Shown here: piece by piece, positions 5,048-50,480 of the stretch | Layout: the number at the start of each line of letters is the position of its first letter | Position numbering within the stretch: the stretch's first letter is position 1 | NCBI GenBank assembly: GCA_964525815.1 | Contig: CAZGJQ010000001.1 | Coordinates: 1-63,537 of the forward strand | DNA: 63,537 nt | From: an uncultured Oscillospiraceae bacterium | GTDB taxonomy: Bacteria > Bacillota > Clostridia > Oscillospirales > CAG-382 | Reading direction: 5' to 3' | Notes under the pieces: model-generated | Database searches by the model: none | Told to the model about the DNA's origin: nothing | Seen by the model: the letters and a program-made list of their open reading frames with translations, nothing else | Program-made: the position numbers and the translations under genes

Positions 5048-5096
5048 AGGGCGGGGGAAAATCCGCAGATAACATCAAAGGATTACCTATCGCTAT

Positions 5097-33749: not shown

Positions 33750-35948
33750 CTATTCGATAGTTCTGATATAGTTCTTCAGTTTTACAATTCTGTCCTCCGT
33801 GTCAATACCATCGGGGTTTTGTGAAATAGCGAGTGTCTCGACAACGCTATCATCGTCATTGTTATAAACCACATAAGAATCGTTTTCGCATGAGATATAG
33901 GTATGAGCATAAATCAAATATTGTCCCATATCGTCTCTGGACAAATGAACATCGTCGGCTTCTTTTAAGTAAGGCATATATGTATTCTGTGACCATGCGG
34001 ATTTTGTCTGCATAATGGAGAATAAGTACGGCTTAGTATCAGCTTCATTATTGCTTAACTTGCCGAAGCTACCTGGACGAAAAACAGAATACTTTACATA
34101 GTAATAATTCCATGGATAAATCCCATCGTTCTCACACTTCGTAATAAATGCTGAGGAGATATTATCAAGTACATCATCATTGAATGTCTCATTAGTATCC
34201 AACAAAGAAATTAAAATTGTCTTTGTATTGTCAAATCCGCTATTGGCGCTTCTGTGAAAAAGCTCATTCCACGCCAACTGCAGCCGCTTAGATGCATACT
34301 GATAACGCCATTTATTTCTTTCTTGTTGCCCATAATTTCCGGTAGCCATTAATGCACAGTCAATCTTATCCCAAGAACAGGTAAAGAGAGATGTGAAGCG
34401 AGGGCCATAAGAAAGGTTTTCAAGTCCGATAATTCCAATTTGTCCATATAGCATTTCATTGTCTTCAAGTGCAAAGACTGCTTCTGCAAGGTCTGGATGT
34501 TCTTCCAAAAATTCGAGCTTCTCTTTTTCCTCTTTCAACTGATTTACATTGAAGTTGTTTTCAATGCTGTCATCAATCAAGCCAGTAAGAATAACTGCAT
34601 CGACCGCTTGAAGAATAGCGGGGATTCTATTTCTATCAAGTCTGTCGCTGACCTCATCTTCAGAATTTTGAATCAAGTTATTTACTATTCTAATTCTTCG
34701 GACAAAATCATCCTTTGATACTTCCTCCTGATGTTTCAGATATACCGTGATAGCATAAAGCAACACAATTCGGTTTAATGGGAATTGACGGATTCTGCCG
34801 GATTTATCCGAGTAGGAGTGGATGCAATCCTCAAAAATATCAATCTTGTTTCTGGAATCAACAACGATTTTTCCTGTTTCATGGGTATGGCTCATAAAGG
34901 ATGTTAGAAACTCCGTAGGATTACTATATCCATCAATAAAGCACCAACAATTAAAGAATGCTTCAAGCGTTGCGATATTGTTCAGGGTGTTTTCACCCTG
35001 TGCAGAAAAATACAAGTGAAGCAAATCGAAAACATCATTGCTGTAGCTCTGAGGTGACTCACCGTTCCGATAACAAATCATATCGCAAATGAATTTGAAA
35101 TAACGCAAAAACTTATCGTCAATGATATTGTCATCTACATCGTCATCACTTCCGTTACGATACTTCCAAAGAAGGTCTGTCCATGTCTTATCAATACTTG
35201 CAAAGATTCTGTCAGCGTTTTTTTCTCCGGTCTCTCCGTCAAGTATTCTGATTTCACGCTCCAACTCTGCTTTGAAGTGTTCAAAGAGAGTCAATGGCTT
35301 ACCACGAGAGTTCATCTTAATGTAAAGCTCATCGGTGAGTCCCATATCTTTTATGGGCAGGAAGTAAAAAGTAATAGCTTGATTCTCTAAACGCTCCCAA
35401 ATGTTTGGAACATCCTTAAAGCGTTCATTAATTGCATCCAGCATAACTAACATTGAGCTGATAGTCGGGTCTTTTTTCCAATCCAGTGGGAACCATGCTT
35501 GATTGATAATTTCCGAAGAAAGGTTGCCCTCAAATGATGGAACAAAGTCAACTAACTCTGTGCAAAAATATCTTGCACTATATCTTGTTTCATAGCTGAA
35601 TCCTTTAAGGAACTCGTATTTTTCTGCAGAAATCTTTTCTTTCTTTGCGGCGTACCAATGCAACAAGAATAGCGTGGTTAAACGCTGCTGGCCGTCCAAG
35701 GGAGTCATCGTGCCTTTATCATCGATGTCACCGTACACAAAGTCCAAGGTGATGGAATCGCCGGCAATGGCATTATAGAGAGAATCCAGAAAACGAACTC
35801 TTATTCTATTCACATCATCGTCCACACGCCCTTGAGCATAGTCACGCTGAATGAGTGGAATAGCAATTTTCTTAAGCTGAACAGGTTCTTCACCGTCCAT
35901 AAACGCAGTTTCAAATATATCAATAAATGAGCGGAGTGTTGCACCCAT
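33750..35948 (-). CDS. DUF262 (ParB-like nuclease superfamily) protein with a long uncharacterised C-terminal region
   Basis: N-terminal IPLIQRDYAQGR and DGQQRLTTLFLLHWY. No DUF1524/His-Me motif was seen in the C-terminal half. It has a TAATG overlap with the upstream gene. Confidence 0.75.
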   Translation of the reverse strand: MGATLRSFIDIFETAFMDGEEPVQLKKIAIPLIQRDYAQGRVDDDVNRIRVRFLDSLYNAIAGDSITLDFVYGDIDDKGTMTPLDGQQRLTTLFLLHWYAAKKEKISAEKYEFLKGFSYETRYSARYFCTELVDFVPSFEGNLSSEIINQAWFPLDWKKDPTISSMLVMLDAINERFKDVPNIWERLENQAITFYFLPIKDMGLTDELYIKMNSRGKPLTLFEHFKAELEREIRILDGETGEKNADRIFASIDKTWTDLLWKYRNGSDDDVDDNIIDDKFLRYFKFICDMICYRNGESPQSYSNDVFDLLHLYFSAQGENTLNNIATLEAFFNCWCFIDGYSNPTEFLTSFMSHTHETGKIVVDSRNKIDIFEDCIHSYSDKSGRIRQFPLNRIVLLYAITVYLKHQEEVSKDDFVRRIRIVNNLIQNSEDEVSDRLDRNRIPAILQAVDAVILTGLIDDSIENNFNVNQLKEEKEKLEFLEEHPDLAEAVFALEDNEMLYGQIGIIGLENLSYGPRFTSLFTCSWDKIDCALMATGNYGQQERNKWRYQYASKRLQLAWNELFHRSANSGFDNTKTILISLLDTNETFNDDVLDNISSAFITKCENDGIYPWNYYYVKYSVFRPGSFGKLSNNEADTKPYLFSIMQTKSAWSQNTYMPYLKEADDVHLSRDDMGQYLIYAHTYISCENDSYVVYNNDDDSVVETLAISQNPDGIDTEDRIVKLKNYIRTIE

Positions 35949-37660
35949 TATGCTTCCTCCTTTTCCAAAACGATAGGCTCATCCAAATAATCTGCGAGCA
36001 CGATATTTATGGCATTGACATAAGAAATTCGGTCAGCCTGTCCCCAAAAGTGGAGTTGATTATCCGCAGAAGGTGTATAGTATTTCAAGAATGCCATCTT
36101 TGTGCAGAACGGAATATACTGCCCCTTTTTATCCATGTCTACAATAACATTTCTCTTTACATCAAAAGTAGAATTGTTGAGTGCTGCGTTGTCGGCAGTG
36201 TTCAGCAAAGCAAGATTGGCAATGGAGTGCAAATACTCAGTATTACCAGATACGGAGAGCATAGCAAGAACCTTTTGCTGGATTCCCTCAAATTCAGTAC
36301 GCTCGAGTTTGGATTTATCTATGGCAGCCTGCATTTCTTCAACCAACATATCGTGGCTATGCCCTATAGATTTGACCGAAGGAATATGAAGTGCAAGCCA
36401 TTCTTTCCATACCTCTTGGGTACGCATACCTTCAGATTGCTGTGCGTGGATATGCTCCAAGCTCCAAGAAACTTTGCTGCTTTTATTATACTTAAATTTG
36501 TCGAACGGAAACCATTGTGTGTGTTCGCCGTTTTGTCTTACAGATTCAACGTTGAACAAGAACAAAAGCGTGCTTATACGCTTATATTCCAAAGGTTTTT
36601 CATAACTCAACTCAGAGTAGTTACCAGATATAGCGACACTATTTTTTATGAACCCATTGAGCATAGAGTTGAACTCGTCTTTGGTTTTGTTTTCCGACAG
36701 TTCAAAAATTTTATGTAGGGTTAAAGTATTAGACGCAATAAGATAACCAATTTTATGATAAAGTTCATGGTTCTCAAACCAGTCTTTCAAGATAAGGAAT
36801 GTCTGCTGAATCTTTCTCCAAATCTTATCCAGGGAGTTTGTATTACGCATTTCATCAAACTTAAAGAATGTGTAATACTTTTCACGAGTTGAGTCTTGTT
36901 TGCCGGAAATCAAATCAAGAACAAGGTCAATGCGTGTTTGATATTTGTTTTTAATGTTATTGGTCAAAAAATACCACAAAGAATCATTGTGTAGTTCCTT
37001 TTCGATGTTATCCCATTGCAAGGAAATTTCCTCTTGCTTTTTTCTATCCATATTGTCAGAACTGTCACGGCTGAGAAACATTGCCTTTACAAGTTCAGCA
37101 CTTGTGAGAGGAATTTTGCCTATGTTCAAGCGAGTAAACAAGGAAATAGCATCTTCGTTCTCGCCAACTTCGTACCAAATAATTTTTACATCCTCTTTGA
37201 AGTATTCAAAAATGTGCATGACGCGAATCTGCATATCCTGTTCAAACCATTTTTGAATTGTTATGTATGCATTGGCAATGAACCAAAAGTCGATGTTATC
37301 TTCCTGCTTAGACAAATCAACAGTCTTCAAAAAATCTGCAGACTGTTCTCTTGTTTCGTATGAAATAGAGAATGCAGGCTCACTAAAGAATGGGTTGACA
37401 TTCTTCATGTATTTATAGATGAGATACAGGGTTGTGAGTCTCTGCTGACCATCAACAAGCTCAAAGGCTTCGCCTCTTTTACGGACGACAACAGGCTGTA
37501 GGCAATAATTATTCTTGCCATTTTGGTAAACATCGTCCAGAAGACGAGTGACTTCATCCTCGCCCCATCTATATCCCCGCTGGTATGAGGGGACAAAAAA
37601 CTCACCCTTTATTTCTCCAACAAACTTGGTAACAAGTATTATATTGTTATTTGTAGTCAT
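35948..37660 (-). CDS. GmrSD/BrxU-like DUF262 plus DUF1524 protein (type IV restriction-like)
   Basis: Trimmed to ATG 37660 (MTTNNNIILV), 11 nt after the upstream stop. It has the DUF262 motifs FFVPSYQRGYRWG and VDGQQRLTTLYLIY, plus a C-terminal DUF1524-like SLEHIHAQQSE...NLALLNTADNAALNNSTF. Confidence 0.8.
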   Translation of the reverse strand: MTTNNNIILVTKFVGEIKGEFFVPSYQRGYRWGEDEVTRLLDDVYQNGKNNYCLQPVVVRKRGEAFELVDGQQRLTTLYLIYKYMKNVNPFFSEPAFSISYETREQSADFLKTVDLSKQEDNIDFWFIANAYITIQKWFEQDMQIRVMHIFEYFKEDVKIIWYEVGENEDAISLFTRLNIGKIPLTSAELVKAMFLSRDSSDNMDRKKQEEISLQWDNIEKELHNDSLWYFLTNNIKNKYQTRIDLVLDLISGKQDSTREKYYTFFKFDEMRNTNSLDKIWRKIQQTFLILKDWFENHELYHKIGYLIASNTLTLHKIFELSENKTKDEFNSMLNGFIKNSVAISGNYSELSYEKPLEYKRISTLLFLFNVESVRQNGEHTQWFPFDKFKYNKSSKVSWSLEHIHAQQSEGMRTQEVWKEWLALHIPSVKSIGHSHDMLVEEMQAAIDKSKLERTEFEGIQQKVLAMLSVSGNTEYLHSIANLALLNTADNAALNNSTFDVKRNVIVDMDKKGQYIPFCTKMAFLKYYTPSADNQLHFWGQADRISYVNAINIVLADYLDEPIVLEKEEA

Positions 37661-37671
37661 ACTTTCCCGCC

Positions 37672-38079
37672 CTAAAGTTCTTTCAATCGTTCCAACCATT
37701 TTTGGATGCTACCATCTTTGAAAAAGCCAAGCAACGCACCGTCGCAAAATCGTTCAGCGCGGACAGCGCCCATAATCAAAGCCATTATACATTGAGCATC
37801 CAATTTTGAAACATCTGCGTCGCTCATGGATTTACTTCCCCATTCAAGCCCGTTTTGGTTCAAAACATCACCATATCTTGTCAGTTCGAAATCGCTATTC
37901 TTATCGCTGAAATCGTACACATCATCGATAAAGTGATGAACCATTTTGGAGTAGTTTACAAAAGGCATCTGAATAGGGCATTCCGGAGTGCCATCATTTT
38001 TATGGTCGATGGCCCAAGTGCCAAACTTATCTTCATCCAGATGAGGAAGATACTTTGTCAGATTTTCAAATTTACTCAT
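37672..38079 (-). CDS. DUF6508-like protein (family recalled from memory)
   Basis: Trimmed to ATG 38079 after AAGGAGG. It has PECPIQMPFVNYSKMVHHFIDDVY and a C-terminal RAERFCDGALLGFFKDGSIQKWLERLK. Confidence 0.6.
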   Translation of the reverse strand: MSKFENLTKYLPHLDEDKFGTWAIDHKNDGTPECPIQMPFVNYSKMVHHFIDDVYDFSDKNSDFELTRYGDVLNQNGLEWGSKSMSDADVSKLDAQCIMALIMGAVRAERFCDGALLGFFKDGSIQKWLERLKEL

Positions 38080-38227
38080 TTTCAACCTCCTTACCTTCCT
38101 CAAAAGTTGTGTCAATGCCTATAAGCTCCTGGACTTATTGACATTCCACATATTCGAGAGCTTTCAGACCAATCATAGAATTTTTCGTAATGATCATCCC
38201 AAGTCACCACCGACCCACGCTTTCTGG

Positions 38228-38887
38228 TTATTTGATTTCCCACACAAAGGTAGCGGTGTCGCTCACATCAATGTCATCGGGCTGGATATCCATATCAGCC
38301 ATTGCTCTCATTGGCATAGCCATAACTCTTTCTTCAAGCATATAGTCTGTGCGAGAAATAATATTGAGTTCGCCCCAATTATAATCAAGGGTAAGCAGGT
38401 CACCCAGTTCCACATCGGATGCTTCACACAGGACTTTTGCTTTTTCTCGTGCATTGATAGTAGCAGACTTCAAAAGCTCCTTATTAACTGCAGACGGGTC
38501 TTTCACCGTAAAGGCGATAGAAAGCTCCGGCTTCGCAAGGGATTTTGAAATAGCACTAAGTGTTTGAGCCAAACGCTTTGTATCGAAGTCAAATTCAACC
38601 TTTAACCGATGGCTACACACATAACCGCTGAATACGCTCTTATAATTCCCGTTTTTATTCTTAACACTCTCGTAGGCGGTGCGGACATTGAAGCTTGTAG
38701 TCCTCACTGATTTCTTCTCAAAGCCAACAGCTTCAAGAGAGACGTTAAGGTAATCAATCTGCTGTGCAGCTTGCTCCATCGTTTCTTCGTATTCCATACC
38801 TTGTGCTTCAAGGTTCATGGACACGACAACATAATCGGGAGCAGTCTTTACATTTCCCATTCCTTTGACTGTAATTGTTCTTGGCAT
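38228..38887 (-). CDS. SIMPL (DUF541) domain protein lacking a signal peptide
   Basis: It begins MPRTITVKGMGNVKTAPDYVVVSMNLEAQG, the first beta-strand of SIMPL domains, directly with no hydrophobic leader. ATG 38887 lies 7 nt after GGAGG. Confidence 0.7.
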   Translation of the reverse strand: MPRTITVKGMGNVKTAPDYVVVSMNLEAQGMEYEETMEQAAQQIDYLNVSLEAVGFEKKSVRTTSFNVRTAYESVKNKNGNYKSVFSGYVCSHRLKVEFDFDTKRLAQTLSAISKSLAKPELSIAFTVKDPSAVNKELLKSATINAREKAKVLCEASDVELGDLLTLDYNWGELNIISRTDYMLEERVMAMPMRAMADMDIQPDDIDVSDTATFVWEIK

Positions 38888-38901
38888 AGTCATTCCTCCC
38901 G

Positions 38902-41900
38902 TTATAATGATTTCATCACATCAAGCAAACGCTGATAGCTATCAACATCGTGATATTTTACATTCTCCGTGGAAATCTCATTAAAGAGTTTTCTTGCACA
39001 AGAGATTTTGGCTTTTTCAATGGGCCTCATGCTAAGGCTTTCCATTGTTCCTTTTGTTTCTGCAATAAAGAAGATGTGCTTTACTGTACCCTCGTTAAAT
39101 GCAATCGCCCAGTCGGGAGAGTAGTTGCCAACCGGAGTAGGAATATGGAATCCTCTCGGCAGCTTAGCATAAACACACACTTCATCGGCGTTATCCAAGT
39201 CCTCTGCGAATCGGCGCTCCACGCTCTTTTCTGCGTAGCCGTCAGTAAATACATAATCTTGAATATGCTTAGTCGCCTTAAACGCCTTATCGATGCTTGC
39301 CGATGTTTTTTCTGCGGTGAAGATAGTGCTGTCATATTCGCCCTCGATTTGGTCGTAGGAGATATGCTCGACAATCATTGTAGCTTTCTGCTCGTTAATT
39401 AGACGAACAACCTTGGCGATAAATTCTTCGGGGTTCGCCTTGTACATGGCAAACTTCAAAGGCGAGATGCCCTTGATAATCTCAACCACAGTCTTACGGG
39501 TGAGAACAGTGCCCTCCGCAATCTTTCCAACAAGGTCATACTTGATATGGCTTACTTCGCCTCGTTTGAGAGTGGTTGTACGGGTCTTTGCAGTCTTAAA
39601 CGCCTCGCCACGCTCCAATGCGTTTGTGCTCATTTCCTCGGTCTGTTCGCCCTTGGAGACGGTGTAGGTCAGCTCGGAAACGAACAGCTCCTTGTCGATA
39701 TGTTCGATAGCCTTTTTAATCAGCTCTGAGCTTTCAAAGGAAACGGCGTAGGCATATTTGTGATTGATACGCTTCCAAAGCTCTTGGAACTCCTGCTTAT
39801 GGAAGTTCTTGTTAAGCTCGTTCTTTTCAATTTTGGTCTGCTTGCCGTCATCAATCATACGAGCAAGAGCGGATTCATCAAAGATGGCCTGCACGAGGGT
39901 ATGTACCCCCTCTGCCATAGGAGCAAGGCTGCCGGGCATAGGAGCAAGCGTACCCATTTCCAAATCCATGCGGTACTTGTCCGTAACCTTTCTATCCATA
40001 TCCACATAGCTGTTCTGAATCAGATAGAACTCAATATTACTTGCAGTCTTTTCATCAATGGCTATAGGCTTGCCGTCTACCTTGACGAACTTGCCCTTAA
40101 AGTAATCGCTGGTAGCAGCGGTCGGGCGGTCGTATAGAACCTTCTTGATGTCGGATTGCAAATCCGCAACGAAGCCCTTATAACTTTCACTTGCGATAAC
40201 CGTCAGCTTGTTGATGTTGTGGATGCTCTCGCCGAGAACCTCCATATCCATTCTGTTACCGACCTGGTTGACACAAAGACGGAGACCACGTCCAACTTCC
40301 TGCCGCTTCTGCGTGGAGCTGTCGCTATGTTTTAGCGTACAAATCTGGAACACATTGGGGTTATCCCAGCCTTCACGCAGAGCCGAGTGAGAGAAGATAA
40401 ATCTTGTCGGCTCGCCAAAGGAAAGCAAGCGCTCCTTGTTCTTCAAGATAAGGTCATAAGCGGAAATATCATCCGAGAACTCAGAGCCACGCTTGAGGGC
40501 AGAGTTCACGCTATGACCGGTCTTCTTGTCGATACTGAAATAGCCCTTGTGGGTATCAGCGATTTCAATCTCTCGCAAATACTTCTGATACGGCGTGTCA
40601 AACATTGTCAGATATTCGTTGAGAATGGCGGTGTATTCTTCTTCAAAAATCTTTCCATATTCACCGAGTAGCTCGTTGCCGTCCTCGTCATACCGGCGGT
40701 ACTTGGCAACCTCGTCAATGAAGAACAAAGACAGGGTTTTTATACCCATTTCAAACAGCTTTTCTTCTTTCTCAAAGTGAGATTGAATGGTCTCTCTTAT
40801 TTGGATACGGCGCATATCCTGCTCAACAATATCGCCGATAACCTCGCCTTGGTGGATAACGGTGCCGCCTGTGAATGTCACAGTACCGCTAAGTGGCTCA
40901 ATGTCGGAGATAACATAGCCGTTCTTATACTGCTCCATTTCGTTTGATTTGTAGTAGAGGTCATCGCCCACGGCAAAAGTAAAGAGTTTTCGTGCGTGAC
41001 CTGCGTTCTGTGCAACCTCGATTTCCAGTTTTGCCATAGGCGGCTTGTTCGGGGACAGAATAATATTTTCAAGATAGAGATACTTGCTCGTGCCGCTGAG
41101 GTTCTTAACCTCAAAGCCCTTGACCTCAATCTTCTTAACGAGCTTTTTGTTAAAGGCATCCAGAGCATCCAGTACATACACAAGGTTGTGCTCCTTGGCA
41201 TGGGTAGCCGAATAGTTCAAGCTGAACAGAGGATTGAAGTTTTTGAGCGCCTTTTGTGTAACTTCGCCGCCCATTTTCTGCGGCTCGTCCAGAATGATGA
41301 TAGGTCTGTTCGCCTTGATAACATCAATCGGACGGCGAGAGCCGAACTCATCACGCTTGGAGTAAATAATGCGGGCTTCCTTGCTTTTTCCGTCCTCTTT
41401 CAAGGAGGAAGCGAAAGCCTGGGTATTGATAATCATGACATTGATACCGGAGCCGGATGAGAAGTTGTCAAGCTCGTTGAGGTTAGAGCTGTTGTAGATG
41501 AAGAAGCGGGCCTTCTTGCCGTACTGCTCCATAAAGTGGTCGGCGGTAATCTGGAAGGTCTTATTGACCCCCTCACGGATAGCAACGCTCGGCACAACGA
41601 CAATGAACTTGCTCCAGCCGTAACGCTTGTTCAGCTCAAACATGGTCTTGATGTAGACATAGGTTTTGCCCGTGCCGGTCTCCATTTCGATATCAAGAGA
41701 GCAACGCCCGATGTTACCAATGAGCTTGTCCGAGGTCTTGATATTGTTCTCGCTTTGTATGGCACGGATGTTTTCAAGCAACTGAGCGTCGGTCAGCTCG
41801 ATAGCTTCATTTTTATAGCCGGTGTCGCCCATGATATCGTCGTCATCATTGAGCATGGCAAGCTGCATCTGCTGATTTGGCTGGAGCTTGCCCAGGTCGC

Positions 41901-42003
41901 GGATATATGTAGTCCGGTCGTAGTTGGGCTGCCCGTTAAATACACGAACAATCGCCTCCACGGCTTCGGTTTGATACTGCTGTATCTTGAAATTGAATTT
42001 CAT
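38902..42003 (-). CDS. res: Type III restriction enzyme Res subunit
   Basis: Trimmed to ATG 42003 (MKFNFKIQQYQTEAV) after GGAGGAG. It has helicase motifs METGTGKTYVY and ILDEPQKMGG, plus a C-terminal PD-(D/E)xK (YSPDWAIAF...FIAETKG). Confidence 0.9.
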   Translation of the reverse strand: MKFNFKIQQYQTEAVEAIVRVFNGQPNYDRTTYIRDLGKLQPNQQMQLAMLNDDDDIMGDTGYKNEAIELTDAQLLENIRAIQSENNIKTSDKLIGNIGRCSLDIEMETGTGKTYVYIKTMFELNKRYGWSKFIVVVPSVAIREGVNKTFQITADHFMEQYGKKARFFIYNSSNLNELDNFSSGSGINVMIINTQAFASSLKEDGKSKEARIIYSKRDEFGSRRPIDVIKANRPIIILDEPQKMGGEVTQKALKNFNPLFSLNYSATHAKEHNLVYVLDALDAFNKKLVKKIEVKGFEVKNLSGTSKYLYLENIILSPNKPPMAKLEIEVAQNAGHARKLFTFAVGDDLYYKSNEMEQYKNGYVISDIEPLSGTVTFTGGTVIHQGEVIGDIVEQDMRRIQIRETIQSHFEKEEKLFEMGIKTLSLFFIDEVAKYRRYDEDGNELLGEYGKIFEEEYTAILNEYLTMFDTPYQKYLREIEIADTHKGYFSIDKKTGHSVNSALKRGSEFSDDISAYDLILKNKERLLSFGEPTRFIFSHSALREGWDNPNVFQICTLKHSDSSTQKRQEVGRGLRLCVNQVGNRMDMEVLGESIHNINKLTVIASESYKGFVADLQSDIKKVLYDRPTAATSDYFKGKFVKVDGKPIAIDEKTASNIEFYLIQNSYVDMDRKVTDKYRMDLEMGTLAPMPGSLAPMAEGVHTLVQAIFDESALARMIDDGKQTKIEKNELNKNFHKQEFQELWKRINHKYAYAVSFESSELIKKAIEHIDKELFVSELTYTVSKGEQTEEMSTNALERGEAFKTAKTRTTTLKRGEVSHIKYDLVGKIAEGTVLTRKTVVEIIKGISPLKFAMYKANPEEFIAKVVRLINEQKATMIVEHISYDQIEGEYDSTIFTAEKTSASIDKAFKATKHIQDYVFTDGYAEKSVERRFAEDLDNADEVCVYAKLPRGFHIPTPVGNYSPDWAIAFNEGTVKHIFFIAETKGTMESLSMRPIEKAKISCARKLFNEISTENVKYHDVDSYQRLLDVMKSL

Positions 42004-43298
42004 GTATTTGCTCCTCCTTCCAAGTAGAGAATAGCTACAGAAATCAAGGCAAGGCAACGCCTGTAAAAATAGTCGTATTGCCTGTTATCTATAATATCAA
42101 TCTTGGTCGTTTCATGATGACGGATTCTGAAACTATTCCCTATGTTGGTTAGGGCCTTAAACTCTGCTTCATACATAGATTTGAAGTTCGGCTCAGAACA
42201 ACTCATGTCGTCAATTATTTTATTTGCGGAATGTGCCTTGTCGAGTGCCGGAGAATAATACGTTTTCAGCCGTTCAAACGCATCCCAAAGCTTTTCTACA
42301 GCGATTTGCTTATTGCTATCGTGATAGTAGCGTTCAGCTTCGGTAACAAGTTCCTTTAACCCCATTTCCGATATAGACGATATCTCATTCTTGCTAATGG
42401 ACACATCAAGCGTGTTTATGAGACGACCTTGTTCAAACTTGTAATTGATGGAGTTCAGTTTGAATAATGCATTTAACTGCGCTGCAAATGCTCCTTCTGA
42501 GTTGTAATTCTCGTATAGTTCCAACGCATCAAAAACATAGAACGGAGAGTTCTTTAAGATGAATTGCTTCATATCATTAGTCTCTACATAGTTCCCGGAA
42601 GCATCATAGCATTTAGGGGTGTAAAACTGCGAGAGGTCTCGAAAAACGCATTCACTTGTGGTTATTTCGTATTGCCAACCTGTCTCATCGGTTTCCCTAT
42701 AAACTGTGGTGAATTTTTCGAGCAATGCACATAATTGGCTTCGCATCTTCATAGTCAAGGAAAGTTTCAACCGTTTGGATTTAATATCAGTTTGGTTTCT
42801 TTGAGAAAATGGTATAAACAAAGCTGTTTCCTCTGGATTATACTTCTTCCAACCATAAACATCACGACCAGATATTTTGCTTTCGGGATACAACTCATAT
42901 CCGTCATTGCGAAGCAAGCCGTTTACAGCATCGAGAAACTCTTTCCAATATCCATTTTCAACTCTCACAGCCGGATGAAATGAAGCACAAAGGAATTTGA
43001 GAAGCACCTCGTCATCGCCATCAAGAAGCTGGAACCTTTCATCTTCAAATACCCAATCATCCTCATAGTCGTTGTTGTTGATGGTGTGCTGCCAGATGTC
43101 ACCCTCTGCGTTATCAAAACGACTATCGAAGCTTGGTAAGGCAGATAAATCGTATAGCCGCTTTAGAAAATCCATTTCGCTCAATTTACCGTAACAAGAG
43201 CATTGGATTCTCTTTGATTCCCAAAATTCCTGCACGTCCATACCGTATTGAAACAGAGCGAAAATATCCCGTTTGGTTATTTCGGTAATCTGTTTCAC
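42000..43298 (-). CDS. AbiJ-N-terminal-domain-like protein with an uncharacterised C-terminal domain, inserted between mod and res
   Basis: A GTG start lies directly after the mod TAA, with AAGGAAGGTG upstream. The N-terminal pattern FLKRLYDLSALPSFDSRFDNAEGDIWQHTINNNDYEDDWVFEDERFQLLDGDDEVLLKFLCASFHPAVR matches what I recall as AbiJ-NTD4. The C-terminus has IGNSFRIRHHE. Confidence 0.65.
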   Translation of the reverse strand: MKQITEITKRDIFALFQYGMDVQEFWESKRIQCSCYGKLSEMDFLKRLYDLSALPSFDSRFDNAEGDIWQHTINNNDYEDDWVFEDERFQLLDGDDEVLLKFLCASFHPAVRVENGYWKEFLDAVNGLLRNDGYELYPESKISGRDVYGWKKYNPEETALFIPFSQRNQTDIKSKRLKLSLTMKMRSQLCALLEKFTTVYRETDETGWQYEITTSECVFRDLSQFYTPKCYDASGNYVETNDMKQFILKNSPFYVFDALELYENYNSEGAFAAQLNALFKLNSINYKFEQGRLINTLDVSISKNEISSISEMGLKELVTEAERYYHDSNKQIAVEKLWDAFERLKTYYSPALDKAHSANKIIDDMSCSEPNFKSMYEAEFKALTNIGNSFRIRHHETTKIDIIDNRQYDYFYRRCLALISVAILYLEGGANT

Positions 43299-45254
43299 TT
43301 AGAGCACCTTCCTTACTGTCGAAGGACTGATAGAAGCAAAAATTTGGTCGAAGTTTGTCAGCACCGAGTCGCTTGCCATTCCGCTGTCACGGAACACGGC
43401 GTAGTAGGGCTGCTGCTTTGCAATAGTCGTAACAACATCGTCGGAGATGTTGTTGTCAAAGCAGGCATACAAAAAGCCGTCTGCAACATTGAACACCTTG
43501 CAGCCGTTGATAGTAGTTTCCTCAATCTTGGAGGAAAGGAGCACACCGAGGTCAAGCATAACCTGAAACAGCAAATCTTCGGGAGTTCTCTCCTCTTTGA
43601 TGTTGCTGGCGTAGTTGTCAAAGGTGGCCTGCGCAACCTCGTCGGGCTTGTAGAACACTTCCTTCATGTTGGATGTGTCGCATTTGAGCACACGGAAGCC
43701 TGTGTCAAGGTTCTGTGCCGTCAAGCCGTTTTCTTCTTTGATTTTTGCGCCTGCACGGCGGATGCGTTCTTTGCCGATTTCGCAGATGTTTTTGTAGCCG
43801 GCCTTGTAAGCCTCGCTTTTTTCGTCGGTTTCTTCGGGGATTTGCACCATGATGAATTTGCGTTTGCCCCCGTCCTCGGCGTTGAGCTGCATGACTGCGT
43901 GGGCGGTGGTGGCAGAGCCGGAAAAAAAGTCCAAAATTGTATCACTGCCAGAAGAAAGCATATTCATCATGTAAGTTATGACATCAACAGGTTTCACATT
44001 TTCAAATACTCTAACACCATTAAATAAATCTTGAACGCATTGTGTGCCTACATTATATATACTCATCATTTCTTTGGGGATTAAAGTAGAAGGAGCCCCC
44101 ATAGCTTCTCCCAAATATTTTTTGATGTAAATATTCCAATGAGCTTGTTCACCGTTTGCAGATACTAGAGGGCCCGTTGTGGTCTTTTTGAATGTGACCA
44201 TATTATCCTTTAACACTTCATCGAATTTCGGACGAATAAAGCGATATATATATCCGTCCTTTGGATATACAACTTCACCATCGGGACACTCTATACCATA
44301 TTTTTGATTAACATTGGTAGATTTATTCTTAAACACAAAGTCCTTATCACGATATAGTCCTCTATCGTCTTTTTGCGTGTACATTTTGATTGCATCAGAA
44401 GACAGCGGTGCATATATTGTGTTCAAATCATTTTTATTCTTAGTGTACACAAGAATATACTCATGTGTTTTACTTGCGAACTTTGGTCTAATTCCACCTG
44501 CCGTAGAACAGTTCCAGATAAAGCAGTTTACTAGATTATCTTCACCAAAAATGTCATTGCAACATTTTTTCATGTTTTCGATTTCATTATCATCAATGCT
44601 TATTACGAGAACACCCTGGTCGGAGAGTAAGTCTTTTGCCAGTCTAAGGCGAGGATAAATCATATTAAGCCAATCAGTATGAAAACGACCGTTGCTATCG
44701 AGGTTTTTTACAAGGCGGTTGCCCTCATCATCAAACTGCCCGCTGTGTTCCATGTATTCATCGGTGCTTTGGGCAAAGTTATCCTCATACACAAAATCGT
44801 TGCCCGTGTTATAGGGCGGGTCTATGTAAATCATCTTTATTTTGCCAAGGTAGGTTTCCTGTAAGAGCTTCAACACCTCAAGGTTATCACCCTCGATATA
44901 GAGGTTTTCAGTTGTTTCAAAGTCTACACTTCCGCTGCTGCAATAGGGCTTGCCGCTGCTGTCTGCTCCTGTAGGAAATTCTTCATCATCACGAACCGGG
45001 CGCAGGGTTTTGGCAATGGGAGTATTGGCAAGCAAAACAGACTTCTTCTTGTCCGGCCATGTAAATTGATAGCGCTCCTCCTTGCCCTCAACAACCTTGA
45101 CAGAGATTTCCTGCATCAGCACATCCTTGTCAATAGCACGGACAACCTCGCCGTTCTCGTCAATAGCCTCCGTGACAGCGTTGGGGAACATAGCCGCCAA
45201 CGCTCTGAAATTATCATCGGCTTTGTTCGCCGTTTGCATTTTAAGTTTATCCAT
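43299..45254 (-). CDS. mod: Type III R-M Mod subunit (N6-adenine DNA methyltransferase, beta class)
   Basis: Catalytic IDPPYNTGNDF lies upstream of the AdoMet motif DFFSGSATTAHAV. GGAGGA is 8 nt before the ATG. Confidence 0.9.
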   Translation of the reverse strand: MDKLKMQTANKADDNFRALAAMFPNAVTEAIDENGEVVRAIDKDVLMQEISVKVVEGKEERYQFTWPDKKKSVLLANTPIAKTLRPVRDDEEFPTGADSSGKPYCSSGSVDFETTENLYIEGDNLEVLKLLQETYLGKIKMIYIDPPYNTGNDFVYEDNFAQSTDEYMEHSGQFDDEGNRLVKNLDSNGRFHTDWLNMIYPRLRLAKDLLSDQGVLVISIDDNEIENMKKCCNDIFGEDNLVNCFIWNCSTAGGIRPKFASKTHEYILVYTKNKNDLNTIYAPLSSDAIKMYTQKDDRGLYRDKDFVFKNKSTNVNQKYGIECPDGEVVYPKDGYIYRFIRPKFDEVLKDNMVTFKKTTTGPLVSANGEQAHWNIYIKKYLGEAMGAPSTLIPKEMMSIYNVGTQCVQDLFNGVRVFENVKPVDVITYMMNMLSSGSDTILDFFSGSATTAHAVMQLNAEDGGKRKFIMVQIPEETDEKSEAYKAGYKNICEIGKERIRRAGAKIKEENGLTAQNLDTGFRVLKCDTSNMKEVFYKPDEVAQATFDNYASNIKEERTPEDLLFQVMLDLGVLLSSKIEETTINGCKVFNVADGFLYACFDNNISDDVVTTIAKQQPYYAVFRDSGMASDSVLTNFDQIFASISPSTVRKVL

Positions 45255-46128
45255 TATCCTGTTCCTCCGTTTCCTTTACTGGAAATATCGTCTTTAATTC
45301 AAGGGCAATTTCTTCGGCAGTCATAGCCGCCGTTGTCATAGCCTTTCTATCGGCAATCATCGGGCTATATTCCACCACTTGTTTTTTCGTTAGGTCATGC
45401 CAAATGGGAAGGATTGTTTTCCCGTTCACCGTTTCTAACTGAAACAGAGCGTTTAGCTCAGTCTTTGTCCAATATTTATGTTCCGCTATATAATTAGGTG
45501 ATAAAACCACAATACCATATCGAGATTTTCTCAATCCGTTGTCTATTCGTTCTCTCATTGAATCTCCCCATTGCAGGCGTTGAGTATCATACCAAACCTT
45601 GAAGCCAATTTTCTCCATTTCAGCAACAAACTCATCAACAAAAGACTCTTTATCTTCAAAAGCGTGAGATACAAAAACATCATATTCTTCGCTTGTGTCA
45701 CTAATGGTATCAGTCAGAATAGTCGGAGCTAAGCTTGTTGTAACTCGCTGCCGCAATTCAGCAATTCGGGCTTCATAAGCAGACTGAACTTGCTTGCTCG
45801 CCTTGTCTTGCTTTTTCTGGTCAGCCTGCTGTGCCTTTTGCAACTTCAAATACGCATCATTACGCTTATTCCTTTTGTCGGAGATTTTCTTGCCCAAGTC
45901 TGCACTTTCGCCAGACCTTTTTGCATAGTCACCCTGCCACCCCGAAATCTGTTTCAATTTGCTCGATGCCGTAGTAGCAGATGTGCTTTTTGTTATGCTT
46001 TTTTGAGTGCTATTGATTTTCCCTTGAAGATTAGCACAGTCTTTATCTTTAGCCGCCTTTTTCTTTTCAAGGTCAGCTATTTCTTTATCAAGCGTATTAA
46101 CTTGTCTTTGATATTGGTCAATTGACAT
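45247..46128 (-). CDS. Coiled-coil plus TIR domain protein
   Basis: The first roughly 148 aa are K/Q/A-rich and coiled-coil-like. The TIR domain begins YDVFVSHAFEDKESFVDEF...GIVVLSPNYIAEHKYWTKTELNAL. It has an ATGA overlap with DUF4391 and an 8-nt overlap with mod. Confidence 0.8.
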   Translation of the reverse strand: MSIDQYQRQVNTLDKEIADLEKKKAAKDKDCANLQGKINSTQKSITKSTSATTASSKLKQISGWQGDYAKRSGESADLGKKISDKRNKRNDAYLKLQKAQQADQKKQDKASKQVQSAYEARIAELRQRVTTSLAPTILTDTISDTSEEYDVFVSHAFEDKESFVDEFVAEMEKIGFKVWYDTQRLQWGDSMRERIDNGLRKSRYGIVVLSPNYIAEHKYWTKTELNALFQLETVNGKTILPIWHDLTKKQVVEYSPMIADRKAMTTAAMTAEEIALELKTIFPVKETEEQDNG

Positions 46129-46733
46129 CAGACCACCTCTAAATCTTTCTTCAACTTATTTATCTGCTGCACCATCTCAAACTTTTTGTTCGGCTGTTTT
46201 TCTGTGCGGGCTTGTTTTTCAAGGCGGTCAATCTCTTTTTGTAGTCGCTGCCGTTTATCATCAGCCGCAATCTGTTCATCAAGGGTGTTTTCGCCCTCTA
46301 TCTCTACTCCGCCCACCTGCACGACTATATTTTCCCATACGGCATCGAGGGTTAAGCCCTTTAGCGGCAATTCGAAGGAGTTTTTCGGCTTCCATGGGGT
46401 CTGCATCAACCTTGTGTGATAAATGGCAAGTTTATGTTCATTGCCGCATTCTAAAACAAACAACATATTCTGCTCTATTAGCTTTGACAATGTGGCGATT
46501 GTGCTCTCAGCAAAGTCTTTCTTTTTAAGCATCGCCTGCACCACAAAAAAGGTTTTAACCTGCTGCCCCTCAGGGATCAGTATCTTAGCGGGCGACACTT
46601 CGTTTACAATGATGATTTTTGAAATATCGGCATCAATCTTTTCTTTTGCTGCCGTGTTCATCTGGAATTTTGAATATATCGCTTTCTTGGGGAGCTGCTT
46701 GTGCAGCTCCGTTACCTTTGGAAGTCCTAACAT
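46128..46733 (-). CDS. DUF4391 domain protein
   Basis: A 201-aa protein with FFVVQAMLKKKDF...MLFVLECGNEHKLAIYH, as I recall for DUF4391. That family is typically adjacent to SNF2 helicases and methyltransferases. Confidence 0.65.
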   Translation of the reverse strand: MLGLPKVTELHKQLPKKAIYSKFQMNTAAKEKIDADISKIIIVNEVSPAKILIPEGQQVKTFFVVQAMLKKKDFAESTIATLSKLIEQNMLFVLECGNEHKLAIYHTRLMQTPWKPKNSFELPLKGLTLDAVWENIVVQVGGVEIEGENTLDEQIAADDKRQRLQKEIDRLEKQARTEKQPNKKFEMVQQINKLKKDLEVV

Positions 46734-46737
46734 GCGC

Positions 46738-49700
46738 TCACCTCACCACTAAAAAGCATATCAGCTCAAAATCGTCTAAGCCTTTTATCTCGCCGGATAA
46801 AAAGCTAACCTGACCGCCGCCTAAAAAACTGTCAATGTCGTTTTCTTCCTTAACATCAATAATGGAATTGATAGCCTCGGAGAGAAGCTCGGAAATCTCA
46901 CTCATGTCACGGCCGTCTTCGGTTTCATCATTAAAACGGTGATACAGCTCCTCAATAGGCTTGTCCTGCCCACGGCATACAAAACGCATGATGTCAAGCA
47001 TTTTCTTGGGCTGGAGATAGTCGCAAACGACTTCGCCCTCATCGCTTACATAGACCATGTAGAACGGATGAAGTCTATTTTTGTTGTCAATGTTGATGCT
47101 CTGGGCACGGTTTTTCAAAACATAAATAACCCCCGGAGGGCAATCAGCAGAGGCAGGAGCAACGGCGTGAAGTCCCATAGGGGTGCGCTCCAGTTCGGGA
47201 TGCCGCTTGATATAATCGAGCAAATCCAGACGAAACTCGTTAAGTCCCAAGTCCATAATGGATATACCGGTTGACATTTCCTCAATATCAACCACTTCTT
47301 CTTGCAACCGTTGGAGCTGTGCTTTGCGGTATTCGAGGTCGTTCTTTTCTTCGTTGGAGAGGATATTATCGTCGCCGGTGGCGGTCATATCCACAATCTT
47401 CATTCGGGTCTCAACCTTGGATTTCAGATTGATATATTCGTCAAGAGTAATATCGGGCCAGAAGTTCACAAGCTGAATCACCTTATTTTTGCTGCCAATA
47501 CGGTCAACACGACCAAAACGCTGAATAATCCGGACAGGGTTCCAATGTATGTCGTAGTTGATAACATAGTCGCAATCCTGCAAGTTCTGACCTTCGGAGA
47601 TACAGTCGGTTGCGATCAAAATATCAATAGCGGTCTTGTCACCAGGCATCAATAGCTCTTTGTCCTTTGAAACAGGAGAAAAGCAGGTCAGAACCGTGTT
47701 CATGTCTGCCTTTTTAAGCTTAGCCGTTGTACGCCCCTCAACAGAGCCGGTGATAACAGCGGTGTGTAGGCCGAACTTTTTCTGCATATAAGGAGCGACA
47801 TTATCATAGAGGTACATTGCCGTGTCGGCGAAGGCAGTAAAGATAATAACCTTTTTATTGTCCTCATTGCTAGAGTGTTCAATCTTATTTCTGAGATCAG
47901 CCAAAAGCACCTGCAGCTTGTTGTCGTGCTCTGGTGTAATATCGTCAACCATGATGGTGAGCAGCTCCAAAATATCTTGGTCTTTTGCCAGCTCTGCTCG
48001 CCAAGAAATTCTATCCATATCGGCAAGGTCGATCTGGACCTTTTTGCCGATAGATACAAACTCATCACCATTTTGGTCATCAAGGTCGTATTCATCAGCA
48101 TTGGAGATGTCAGTAAGGTCGATTTTGGCACCGGTGGTGCATTCATAACTATCAATTGTTTTTATGGTCTCATCAATTATCCCCTTAATTCTGCGAAGCG
48201 TAAGGTTAAAGGAGAAGACAGAGCTTTCCATACGCTTCATAAGGTTTATTGCCATGAGGCGGCGAATACCAAGCTCACGGTTGGATTGAGTAAACCCTAC
48301 ATTTACTTTATTATCTCCGTACATCTCTGCGTACTTTTCCATACGGCTCGGCAGTATGTAGTGAGATGGACGGTAAATATCCAGATTGAGCTTTGCAAGC
48401 TGCTCAAATATTTCATTGTAGCTAATTGCATCCTTCAGGTCGGTCAGATGAGGTCTGTGAGACTTGGGAGGCAATCTTTCGGGGAACTTACCTATAGCGG
48501 TGGTGTCGTAGTATTTTTCAATATGTTTTCTGGAACGAGCGATTGTTACGCTGTCAAGCACTTCAAAAAAGTCAAAGTCCAACATCCTGAGCAAATTATC
48601 GGTAGTGCGGTCGCAAGGGTCCCACTTGCTCCATGTGTTGAACGCTTTTTGTGCGTTTCTGAAAATCTCATCAATAGTGTGAGAGGTTTTTAGCTTGTTA
48701 TCCAGCTGCTTAGAGTCACCCTCATAGGCGAGCTGAAGCTGATTCTTCAAATCGTTGAAACGGGTATTGACGGGCGTTGCAGACATCATAAGCACCTTTG
48801 TCTTTACGCCTTTACGAATAACCTGCTTCAAAAGTGTAGTGTAGCGATTATCTTTTTCGTCATCTTCCTTGTCCAGCTTACCGCCGTTTCGGAAGTTGTG
48901 GGATTCATCGATAACAACGAGGTCATAGGTATCCCAGCGCAGACGAGACAAATCCGTGCCGTTAGATGTGCCGTTAGTACGCCCAAGGTCGGTATGATAG
49001 AGAACCTTGTAGTTCAAGCGGTCTTCTGCGAGAGGGTTGTTGATATAGTTGTCACGATATGTATTCCAGTTGTTTGAGAGCTTCTTTGGGCAAAGAACAA
49101 GAACACTCTTGTTTCTGGTTTCGTAATACTTAATTACCGCCAAAGCAGTAAATGTCTTACCAAGACCAACAGAGTCGGCAAGAATACAACCGTTGTATTT
49201 TTCAAGTTTATTGATAATTGCAAGAGCAGCATCTCGCTGGAAGTTAAACAGCATACCCCAAACCTTGCTGTCCTTAAAGCCGGTGGCTTCATTAGGCAGC
49301 GTATCTTCGGATACATCATCCAGAAACTCATTGAAAATATTAAACAGCGTAATGAAGTAAATAAACTCTGGCGAGTTCTCATTATAAACCGCCGTGATAT
49401 TCTCAACCACTTGGTCAGTTACATCCTGGAAATTCTTCTTGTCGTTCCAAAGCTGTTCAAAGAGGTCTATGTAGCTTTTGCTCATCGGGAACGATAATCT
49501 CTGCGTGAAGTTATAGGCATAATTGCCACGCTCACAACCAAGGTCAACGGTGGTGAACTCGTTGAACGGCATATATGTGTATTGGTCCTTCTCATTCATA
49601 ACATTGAGGAATCCGGGCACTACCTGGCTGGTCGTATTGGATTTGAATGTTGCCTTTTGTTTAATCCATTCCGCACACTCTTTTGCAATAGCTCGTTGTG

Positions 49701-50004
49701 TCAGCTCGTTGCGGAGACGAATTTCAAACTCTGTACCATAGAGGTTTTGCTCACGGGTCATACGAGGAATGTAAAACTCACGCTTGGATTTCTCAGCCTT
49801 GTCCATCGTGAAAGTAGGAGAGGTAAAAATGAACTGTAAATCCTCAATACCGGAAAGGTTCTTCTTCAATTCCTCATAAGCATAGATAGAAAAGCAGACC
49901 GCTGCGATTCTCAGCTTGCTTTTCTTTGTAATTGTCTCTGATAAATCATCACGAACCCGTGTATTGATATTATCTATCATCTTTGGCATCGATATTGCTT
50001 CCAT
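46738..50004 (-). CDS. SNF2-family helicase (1088 aa)
   Basis: Motif I ILADSVGLGKTFTA, motif II VVIDESHNFRN, motif III MSATPVNTR and motif VI QRFGRVDRIGS. GGAGG lies 8 nt before ATG 50004. The N-terminal roughly 250 aa were not assigned. Confidence 0.9.
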   Translation of the reverse strand: MEAISMPKMIDNINTRVRDDLSETITKKSKLRIAAVCFSIYAYEELKKNLSGIEDLQFIFTSPTFTMDKAEKSKREFYIPRMTREQNLYGTEFEIRLRNELTQRAIAKECAEWIKQKATFKSNTTSQVVPGFLNVMNEKDQYTYMPFNEFTTVDLGCERGNYAYNFTQRLSFPMSKSYIDLFEQLWNDKKNFQDVTDQVVENITAVYNENSPEFIYFITLFNIFNEFLDDVSEDTLPNEATGFKDSKVWGMLFNFQRDAALAIINKLEKYNGCILADSVGLGKTFTALAVIKYYETRNKSVLVLCPKKLSNNWNTYRDNYINNPLAEDRLNYKVLYHTDLGRTNGTSNGTDLSRLRWDTYDLVVIDESHNFRNGGKLDKEDDEKDNRYTTLLKQVIRKGVKTKVLMMSATPVNTRFNDLKNQLQLAYEGDSKQLDNKLKTSHTIDEIFRNAQKAFNTWSKWDPCDRTTDNLLRMLDFDFFEVLDSVTIARSRKHIEKYYDTTAIGKFPERLPPKSHRPHLTDLKDAISYNEIFEQLAKLNLDIYRPSHYILPSRMEKYAEMYGDNKVNVGFTQSNRELGIRRLMAINLMKRMESSVFSFNLTLRRIKGIIDETIKTIDSYECTTGAKIDLTDISNADEYDLDDQNGDEFVSIGKKVQIDLADMDRISWRAELAKDQDILELLTIMVDDITPEHDNKLQVLLADLRNKIEHSSNEDNKKVIIFTAFADTAMYLYDNVAPYMQKKFGLHTAVITGSVEGRTTAKLKKADMNTVLTCFSPVSKDKELLMPGDKTAIDILIATDCISEGQNLQDCDYVINYDIHWNPVRIIQRFGRVDRIGSKNKVIQLVNFWPDITLDEYINLKSKVETRMKIVDMTATGDDNILSNEEKNDLEYRKAQLQRLQEEVVDIEEMSTGISIMDLGLNEFRLDLLDYIKRHPELERTPMGLHAVAPASADCPPGVIYVLKNRAQSINIDNKNRLHPFYMVYVSDEGEVVCDYLQPKKMLDIMRFVCRGQDKPIEELYHRFNDETEDGRDMSEISELLSEAINSIIDVKEENDIDSFLGGGQVSFLSGEIKGLDDFELICFLVVR

Positions 50005-50299: not shown

Positions 50300-50480
50300 A
50301 AATTTTACCTCTTCACCTTATGATAGTCTAAAAAGGTTAGCGTTAAAGTACACGAACTGTATTATAACACAAACCAACACAGATTGCAATAAAATGCTCT
50401 GTAAATTAAAGAAAACATTGCAACTTCTTGAAGCGTTTATTTGCATGAATAGAAATTGGATAAGACGAACTTATTTATGT

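Follow-up and report, generated by a model that had tools for sequence, protein, structure and literature searches.

Nesting of defence genes inside other defence systems is documented for BREX, DISARM, Hma and type I restriction-modification (R-M) loci, and seven Hma-embedded candidates were validated experimentally in the study that is also the source of the PADLOC families PDC-S32 and PDC-S66 (bioRxiv 10.1101/2024.01.29.577857). For HEPN, RhuM and DOC genes found inside R-M operons a role as back-up defences of the PrrC type was predicted, and the N-terminal domains (NTDs) of AbiJ proteins were proposed to be sensors (PMC3710099). The Abi_C protein SadR was experimentally shown to be a HEPN RNase with anti-phage activity, residues R225, N226 and H232 being essential both for RNase activity and for defence (PMC13590631). 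Here we describe open reading frame (ORF) X, a gene situated between mod and res of a type III-like R-M cassette in contig CAZGJQ010000001.1 (assembly GCA_964525815.1) of an uncultured Oscillospiraceae bacterium; the window analysed comprises its whole stretch of 63,537 nucleotides. The phenomenon of embedding is already known, and the protein family of ORF X has been catalogued with a function that is only predicted. In the searchable literature we found no description of a type III-like cassette with DUF4391 and SNF2 genes, of its two variable slots or of the C-terminal motif discussed below, and searches on DUF4391, on type III R-M with RhuM and on PDC-S32 gave nothing relevant.

ORF X (42000..43298, minus strand, as are all features of the cassette given below) encodes an intact 432-aa AbiJ-related protein composed of NTD3, NTD4 and a HEPN-like C-terminal module. 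On balance we favour its interpretation as an accessory defence gene, which provides a second layer of the abortive-infection type and is carried as an interchangeable cargo of the mod-res slot, not as a subunit of the restriction enzyme. The first-pass annotation, based on the letters of the window, had placed a 432-codon frame here without stating the strand, and it read the gene borders correctly: the GTG start codon (43298..43296) directly abuts the TAA of mod (43301..43299) with no spacer, and the TGA shares the tetranucleotide ATGA (42003..42000) with the start codon of res. All peptide strings quoted in it were found in the translation. The Shine-Dalgarno sequence AAGGAAGG (43307..43314) belongs to the 3′-terminal part of mod and precedes the GTG by 8 nt; likewise, GGAGGAG (42011..42017), which serves res, belongs to the 3′-terminal part of ORF X and precedes the res ATG by 7 nt. 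ORF X is translationally coupled, therefore, on both sides, to mod and to res.

Since mod and res of canonical type III systems are adjacent, the intervening gene had initially been taken for an exception. This premise does not hold for the cassette family in question, which has the order SNF2 helicase – DUF4391 – slot – mod – slot – res. Its mod-res junctions were surveyed through DUF4391, an anchor that does not depend on ORF X. In the 80 metagenome loci fetched, DUF4391 was 65–78% and Res mostly 72–75% identical to those of the query cassette, and the counts given here cover 55 complete mod-res junctions. The survey revealed a recurrent arrangement, the junction being occupied in 53 cases out of 55. 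The most frequent occupant was RhuM (PF13310, E 5.5e-109; 18 loci), followed by Abi_C HEPN proteins (2.9e-26; seven loci), a 212-aa protein in which a short leader precedes a module 46% identical to the C-terminal module of ORF X (seven), a 204-aa protein with an RNKYAH motif (five) and DUF2971 (four). Full-length ORF X was present in two loci, a Fic/DOC protein with Bro-N and a Shedu-like SduA_C protein in one locus each. Small coiled-coil or membrane proteins (118–139 aa) accounted for four junctions, and other proteins of 197, 202, 221 and 261 aa for four more. Two junctions contained no intact frame. In one of them (L093, 7259..9300) mod and res are separated by 150 nt of non-coding sequence, in which a GGGAGG of its own precedes res, and the 3′ end of mod is a variant; the other (L132, 12478..13506) is a 1,024-nt gap without a long ORF, possibly a decayed RhuM gene.

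Borders of the exchanged segment are precise. All occupants start within −4 to +1 nt of the mod stop codon (two larger offsets turned out to be artefacts of ORF calls extended upstream) and all end within −11 to +16 nt of the res ATG. Of the 27 cassettes displayed, 24 share a near-identical mod 3′ terminus, ...GTAAGGAAGGTGCTG-stop, regardless of the gene that follows, the variants being CGGAAG in L091 and L093 and GAGGAAGG in L007, and the 5′ end of res, ATGAA(A/G)TT(T/C)AA, is conserved in 25. The ribosome-binding site of res, GGAGG, is supplied by each cargo itself. At least 16 alternative, interchangeable genes occur at the mod-res position, and the combination of tight gene borders, conserved flanks in mod and res, a Shine-Dalgarno sequence borne by mod and another one brought by every cargo makes this junction a plug-in position whose ribosome-binding site is already in place. 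With such an organization translation of any cargo keeps pace with that of Mod and Res, and the cargo is transferred together with them. Exchange of cargos is explained most simply by homologous recombination in the conserved flanks.

Some of the slot proteins have a similar N-terminal leader of ~75–85 aa (NR.YAE.IISAL..DLE.DYK...SRAEKLFG...), recognized by inspection and having no Pfam match. It precedes Abi_C in two loci with long Abi_C occupants (L112, L145) and the C-terminal module of ORF X in seven (L095, L096, L098, L101, L107, L137, L144). Attachment of a similar leader to both suggests from the sequences that Abi_C and the C-terminal module of ORF X may be functionally interchangeable effectors.

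The junction between DUF4391 and mod is a second slot, hypervariable and as diverse in its content as the first one. In relatives of the query cassette it contains proteins of 379, 213, 172 and 281 (a pair), 599, 448, 696 and 464 (a pair) or 743 aa, or nothing. Overall, unrelated genes of 162–743 aa, two-gene pairs, another type of TIR protein or a gap of 9 nt were seen there, and many of these cargo proteins end in ...NG just ahead of the mod start. At least seven different states of this slot were seen beside ORF X, and the Mod proteins that occur with it are 41–75% identical to Mod of the query cassette, so that no particular partner or specificity is obligatory for it.

These data bear on two functions initially offered for ORF X, that of a sensor or regulator of the restriction complex and that of an abortive effector translated together with it. 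As an accessory subunit or regulator, ORF X would tune the type III enzyme in its specificity, its assembly or its activity, being no effector itself. Its position and two-sided coupling agree with such a role, and absence of the canonical HEPN arginine, described below, implies that the C-terminal module might be non-catalytic. However, the same place in cassettes with Res 72–75% identical to the query is taken by unrelated genes, including RhuM, Fic and Abi_C, or, in the empty 150-nt junction of L093, by none, and only 2 of 55 related cassettes contain ORF X. Besides, its family is widespread away from any nearby type III genes, at least seven states of the second slot accompany it, and fusions of NTD3 to kinases and Shedu nuclease domains are typical of sensor-effector defence proteins. 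Since ORF X is lacking from near-identical cassettes, a regulatory or subunit role appears very improbable. The option of an abortive effector, on the contrary, gains support from the AbiJ NTDs, the HEPN-like module and coupling on both sides, and the company of toxin- or Abi-type proteins in the slot (RhuM, Abi_C HEPN, Fic/DOC, Shedu-like) counts in its favour as well.

Similarity of ORF X to AbiJ NTDs was readily detected by profile searches, although the assignment of domains differs from that originally suggested. The first ~160 aa had been ascribed to AbiJ NTD4, but this part of the protein (aa 3–157, 42828..43292) is matched by AbiJ_NTD3 (PF18860, Pfam E 8.4e-54), a predicted invader-sensing or regulatory domain. 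NTD4 (PF18863) follows at aa 164–298 (42405..42809) as a weak match with E 2.1e-7 and a score of 31.9 bits, which falls slightly short of the cut-off of 34; matches to AbiJ_NTD4 recur in 24 of 38 family members, the best one having E 1.7e-11. The C-terminal ~250 aa, which had been considered unassignable, proved to be assignable in part: PADLOC PDC-S32 covers aa 249–426 (E 8.3e-51, profile positions 116–300 of 301). What stood is that neither Pfam nor NCBIfam has a domain over residues ~300–432. The matched portion makes up the C-terminal ~60% of the PDC-S32 profile, the N-terminal part of which corresponds to NTD4 in relatives of ~300 aa. NCBIfam has no family for ORF X, and an ATPase domain was found in it neither by Pfam nor by NCBIfam.

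ORF X has, therefore, the AbiJ-NTD domain at the N-terminus (PF18860 match) that is expected of the AbiJ family, but neither its C-terminal Abi_C (PF14355) HEPN domain nor its R-[polar]-x3-6-H RNase motif. By these features it is classed as an AbiJ-related protein and not filed as a bona fide AbiJ; a 74%-identical relative bears the same name, ‘AbiJ-related protein’, in UniRef. In the database clustered at 90% identity 1399 homologues were found, the best 120 of which are 379–434 aa long and mostly full-length, and 2044 representatives of the family are present among the 50%-identity clusters. Elsewhere NTD3 is fused to Ser/Thr kinases and to Shedu SduA nuclease domains, and NTD4 with the C-terminal module exists as separate proteins of ~300 aa, named ‘AbiJ-NTD4 domain-containing protein’ in RefSeq. 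With these fusions and separate proteins, the family is modular.

The C-terminal helical module (aa 303–425, 42024..42392), which together with NTD4 corresponds to PDC-S32, was modelled by AlphaFold2 as residues 296–432 with a predicted local distance difference test (pLDDT) score of 84 and a predicted TM-score (pTM) of 0.80. Helices are predicted at positions 312–326, 330–348, 354–366, 370–389 and 405–425, the third of them being an insert, so that the model has the four-helix up-down bundle of HEPN domains, which often contain an insert between helices 2 and 3. Such an insert and an acidic-x3-basic element in helix 2 were described for HEPN domains (PMC3710099), and the element D339-x3-R343 is found in helix 2 of the module. 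Between the last two helices there is the motif G387-N388-S-F-R-I392-R393-H394-H-E396 (42111..42140), part of the peptide IGNSFRIRHHE encoded by 42111..42143. Residues W338, K354, G387, N388, I392, R393, H394 and E396 are invariant in 61 sequences of 29–63% identity. The first-pass annotation rightly stated that this peptide is reminiscent of, but does not fit, the HEPN motif Rx4-6H: R391 varies in the same 61 sequences, and no Arg precedes any invariant His by 4–6 residues. In its general form, G-N-x-[FY]-x-I-R-H-x-E, the motif occupies the end of the penultimate helix and the loop toward the last one. G387 and N388 close the helix and R393-H394-x-E396 are in the loop, which fits the position of a HEPN active site, the sequence being non-canonical. 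The distance of six residues from N388 to H394 is the same as in R-N-EYGDA-H of SadR. Thus, the place of the motif, the extra helix between helices 2 and 3 and the D339..R343 element make the module resemble the described HEPN domains.

Structural comparison pointed in the same direction. When the domain-only model was compared with the Protein Data Bank (PDB) by Foldseek, the top matches were HEPN proteins (2hsb, 4nqf, 2q00, AbiV 9bj6 and 1wol), with probability 0.98 and TM 0.57–0.60 for 2hsb. The full-length model, whose pTM is low (0.41) because the protein is multi-domain, gave nothing in PDB or among viral structures. Weak Pfam matches to PaREP1, below the gathering score, were registered for 6 of 38 members of the family (best E 0.0036). 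In both matches inspected with coordinates they are in register on helices 1–2. They are found in full-length proteins, the ten short members scanned giving no PaREP1 match. PaREP1 is a HEPN-T family (PDB 2q00) that has no Arg in the motif but retains the His (PMC3710099).

Several observations weigh against assignment of the module to the HEPN superfamily or against its activity as a nuclease. All Foldseek E-values were 0.38 or higher, and designed helical bundles score alike. No HEPN family is linked to the module significantly by sequence or profile: Abi_C was matched at E≤10 neither by the C-terminal 190 or 127 aa nor by any of the 38 members, hhalign of the C-terminal family against Abi_C gave a probability of 1.6%, and the profile of this family found no matches among PDB sequences. 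The hhalign result is weak negative evidence, since the Abi_C alignment is shallow (13 sequences, Neff 1.6). A phmmer search of ORF X against PDB sequences returned only spurious matches to MLH1 and L28. The canonical catalytic Arg is missing, its place by spacing being taken by G387, and in SadR the replacement R225A abolished both RNase activity and defence (PMC13590631), so that the module could be inactive or do something else. PDC-S32, like all PDC families, is a predicted candidate (bioRxiv 10.1101/2024.01.29.577857). Nevertheless, with the fold and PaREP1 matches, the position of the motif and its SadR-like spacing weighed against the negative homology searches, the module probably represents a divergent HEPN domain whose active site is non-canonical, as far as can be judged from its sequence and predicted model.

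If, however, the HEPN-like module is dead or serves as an adaptor, ORF X might be a sensor lacking nuclease activity that activates a separate effector. In some genomes a SadR-like Abi_C RNase would play this part; here it might be Res or the TIR protein. Apart from the missing canonical Arg, this possibility derives support from six genomes (L016, L041, L046, L047, L056, L058) where a full-length relative, 55–58% identical to ORF X, is located directly downstream of a gene for a SadR-like Abi_C protein of 265–271 aa (Abi_C E 8.5e-26). The distance between the two genes varies from −44 to +3 nt, with an overlap in five genomes of the six; in L016, L041 and L047 the pairs are found at about 9200–11300. 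They look like two-gene units, in which a canonical HEPN domain would be paired with the non-canonical module. But eight positions of the module, including N, R, H and E of the motif, are invariant at 29–63% identity, as would be expected of an active site, the 212-aa form composed of leader and module fills the slot without an Abi_C partner, and many different genes or none in the DUF4391-mod slot beside ORF X mean that there is no fixed partner. We consider, therefore, a role without effector activity quite unlikely.

Relatives of ORF X allow its history in the cassette to be traced. Homologues of 71–75% identity have the same gene order, SNF2 helicase – DUF4391 – variable gene – mod – ORF X – res. 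Relatives were found in 229 species by a scan in which each species was represented by one genome, and genomic contexts were read for the best 80 loci. Among these, only relatives at least 66% identical to ORF X sit in the cassette, their hosts being represented by metagenome-assembled genomes of Cellulosilyticum, Ruminococcus, Clostridia, Eubacteriales and Treponema, and many metagenomes contain them too; around the remaining ones (≤61% identity), neither a related mod nor a related res is present within 10 kb. The embedded copies, 10 distinct sequences, group in a clade that includes no other relatives; they are 63–97% identical to each other and 43–61% to others. All of them are intact, and the ratio of nonsynonymous to synonymous substitution rates (dN/dS) in unsaturated pairs (dS 0.09–0.18) is 0.10–0.15. 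It follows from the exclusiveness and integrity of this clade and the low dN/dS that the gene is functional and under purifying selection, and that it was probably captured by the cassette once. A degenerate remnant, which had been named as a possible outcome, is rejected on the same grounds. So is a one-off insertion, as the arrangement recurs across several taxa and many metagenomes.

Outside the cassette one of the settings is the border of integrated elements. A methyltransferase gene of rumA/rlmD type neighbours the relative in 28 loci and is immediately upstream of it in 23; in 11 methyltransferase-flanked loci genes for ParA-like (confirmed by Pfam) and ParB-like (recognized by inspection) proteins follow downstream. 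Other non-embedded relatives stand downstream of a 1108-aa DEAD helicase or adjoin type I HsdR, an Eco57I-like (type IIG) enzyme or other helicases, and some are found in defence islands of plasmids. The sole match in the phage collection is a 62%-identical full-length relative (5054..6334) in MT837286.1, a 7.2-kb contig of ‘Bacteriophage sp.’ from human faeces; this contig is short, metagenomic and unannotated, and its viral assignment is putative. On a plasmid of Enterococcus sp. DA9 (NZ_CP042840.1, 6653..13670) a 301-aa protein made of NTD4 and the C-terminal module, accompanied by a 260-aa hypothetical protein, is encoded 1.2 kb upstream of a type III pair of the usual kind, in which mod and res are 12 nt apart; a ParB-N protein overlaps the end of res there.

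This association of a shorter relative with a different type III system is in line with one more explanation, according to which ORF X is a guard like PrrC, bound and silenced by Mod/Res and firing when a phage anti-restriction protein disables the enzyme. Its place in the slot would then mirror a physical partnership. Exact insertion between the subunit genes with coupling on both sides, as well as separation of embedded copies into a distinct, strongly conserved clade apart from non-embedded relatives, also speak for such a guard, and there is a precedent in PrrC-EcoprrI, the logic of which was extended by prediction to HEPN genes in R-M operons (PMC3710099). On the other hand, specific binding of Mod/Res by all of at least 16 unrelated slot proteins is unlikely, relatives of 43–61% identity manage without a type III system within 10 kb, for instance at borders of integrative and conjugative elements marked by rumA, and ORF X is not bound to one Mod (41–75% identity). 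It also retains NTDs of the sensor type, while in R-M operons NTD-less AbiJ proteins are commoner (PMC3710099). A dedicated guard is, thus, rather unlikely. Unrelated slot cargos, retained NTDs and non-embedded relatives make us favour autonomy of ORF X combined with co-expression and co-transfer, and the distinctness of the embedded clade leaves room for a specific partnership with Mod/Res.

According to the preferred interpretation of ORF X as an autonomous, abortive-infection-type second layer, two NTDs of AbiJ type (NTD3 and the weakly matching NTD4) are joined to a ~125-aa helical module that would replace the canonical Abi_C RNase domain. The module would be a divergent HEPN with the motif rewired from R-N-x5-H of Abi_C to G-N-x4-R-H-x-E. 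Being expressed and transferred together with Mod and Res as a slot cargo, the protein would be kept silent by its NTDs until a phage component or a failure of restriction is detected. The released effector may then damage RNA, as expected of a HEPN-like protein, and halt phage growth at a cost to the cell. Both the sensing by NTDs and the toxic, probably RNA-targeting, action of the module are inferred from the families involved. A bolder version can be imagined, in which the mod-res position is a generalised guard socket for any toxin (RhuM, Fic, Abi_C, Shedu-like or ORF X) that is checked by the Mod/Res complex or senses its state and fires upon neutralisation of restriction by phages, and the module of ORF X represents a hitherto unrecognised family of nucleases that derives from HEPN and has its catalytic Arg relocated (G-N-x4-R-H-x-E); at present we look upon it as doubtful.

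The cassette itself consists of six genes. The first one (46738..50004) encodes a 1088-aa SNF2-family helicase with SNF2-rel_dom and Helicase_C domains, matched by PADLOC C3a139 ‘HKD+Snf2’ (1.7e-130). Its residues 1–250 have no Pfam domain, while the whole protein aligns with C3a139 end to end, so the N-terminus may contain a degenerate or divergent HKD/PLD nuclease domain. The next gene, for the 201-aa DUF4391 protein (46128..46733; PF14335, 5.4e-31), belongs to the conserved part and is present in all cassettes; NCBIfam has no family for its product. In the window the second slot is filled by a 293-aa protein with a coiled-coil and a TIR domain (45247..46128; TIR_2, 3.1e-18; PADLOC PDC-S66, 8.4e-98). 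The flanking genes of ORF X are those of a type III R-M system: mod (43299..45254) for a 651-aa methyltransferase (PF01555, E 7.7e-34; PADLOC MTase_III, 3.6e-216), and res (38902..42003) for a protein of 1033 aa, counted from the ATG at 42003, with a helicase and a C-terminal endonuclease (PADLOC REase_III, 1.5e-290; NCBIfam PRK15483, 6.5e-114; ResIII and RE_endonuc in Pfam, E 3.1e-29). They do not form a two-gene adjacent pair, as SNF2 and DUF4391 genes are located upstream and the junctions are filled. A candidate promoter of the operon, TTGCAA-17-TATAAT with an extended TG, was noticed upstream of the SNF2 gene (50361..50389) as a consensus match only; scanning of the operon for promoters and terminators was uninformative, giving counts equal to those in shuffled sequence, and no notable tandem repeats were found in the cassette. 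In three related loci (L003, L004, L005) mod has a frameshift at a poly-A tract (~8590–8600), with A8 versus A7 in the otherwise identical L001 and L002, which could reflect either a homopolymer error in the assembly of long reads or phase variation of this type III gene. L003 and L005 have a split SNF2 gene as well.

As judged from its gene content, the contig is a conjugative element. It encodes a group II intron protein with reverse transcriptase and HNH domains (2982-4985), a VirB4/TraG-like ATPase (7877-10381), an NlpC/P60 protein (10926-12683), topoisomerase III (14236-16281), a polyvalent protein with ArdC-N, LPD28, YodL and DUF4316 domains (17310-19622), a giant 2917-aa protein with MutS_I and SNF2 (21329-30082), a MobA/VirD2 relaxase (32202-33575) and a Y-family polymerase (50942-52477). 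Defence cargo is placed after the relaxase and comprises two GmrSD-like genes, DUF6508 and SIMPL genes and the cassette. The tandem GmrSD-like genes (33750..37699) and the genes for DUF6508 (37672..38115) and SIMPL/DUF541 (38228..38893) proteins are all on the minus strand directly downstream of res. One GmrSD-like protein (583 aa, 35948..37699) is matched by PADLOC HEC-06, which was among nine Hma-embedded candidates tested, seven of them confirmed (bioRxiv 10.1101/2024.01.29.577857); the other (732 aa) has only a GmrSD_N match. With an ArdC-type anti-restriction gene and the cassette on one element, a carrier of anti-restriction also bears a restriction cassette.

Nested defence genes of restriction- and BREX-type operons are recognized as a productive source of new immune systems. 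The cassette extends the same logic, in an unusually clean form, to a type III-like system that is common in Firmicutes of the human gut. At least 16 cargos of the mod-res slot, many of them without known function, make up a catalogue of candidate defence genes, for testing of which the cassette offers a natural chassis. The widespread family of ORF X, with its 2044 clusters at 50% identity, joins sensor domains of AbiJ to a HEPN-like module with a rewired motif and, if the C-terminal module is indeed active, it would extend the definition of the HEPN active site.

Among the closest known systems are AbiJ and SadR, with which ORF X has in common NTDs defined in AbiJ, a sensor-type N-terminus followed by a small C-terminal helical effector, a polar motif between the last two helices with an N-to-H spacing of 6, and occurrence in defence contexts and mobile elements. 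It differs from them in the absence of an Abi_C (PF14355) match at any threshold tried, in Gly at the position of the catalytic Arg, with Arg directly before His and an invariant Glu after it, and in the tandem NTDs; its family is known from sequence alone. Archaeal HEPN-T proteins of the PaREP1/8 and AF0298 type (2q00, 2hsb) provide the best structural matches to the module, weak PaREP1 profile matches and an example of a His without Arg. However, they are linked to minimal nucleotidyltransferases and have no genomic context in common with ORF X, and the similarity is below significance (E 0.004–0.4). PrrC of the type Ic operon EcoprrI is likewise a plausible back-up, as a HEPN-type effector, putative in the case of ORF X, inside an R-M operon. 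But PrrC combines an ABC-ATPase N-domain with the canonical Rx4-6H motif and accompanies almost exclusively type I systems, whereas ORF X has AbiJ NTDs and no ATPase, resides in a type III-like cassette at a position with many alternative occupants, and its physical link to Mod/Res is hypothetical. Finally, like the guilt-by-embedding candidates of PADLOC (HEC and PDC), ORF X and the TIR gene are nested in a multi-gene defence system and match PDC-S32 and PDC-S66, respectively. ORF X departs from the PDC-S32 unit by the extra NTD3 in front, and the cassette from the embedding cases described so far by two fixed slots, a built-in ribosome-binding site and junctions that precisely follow the gene borders.

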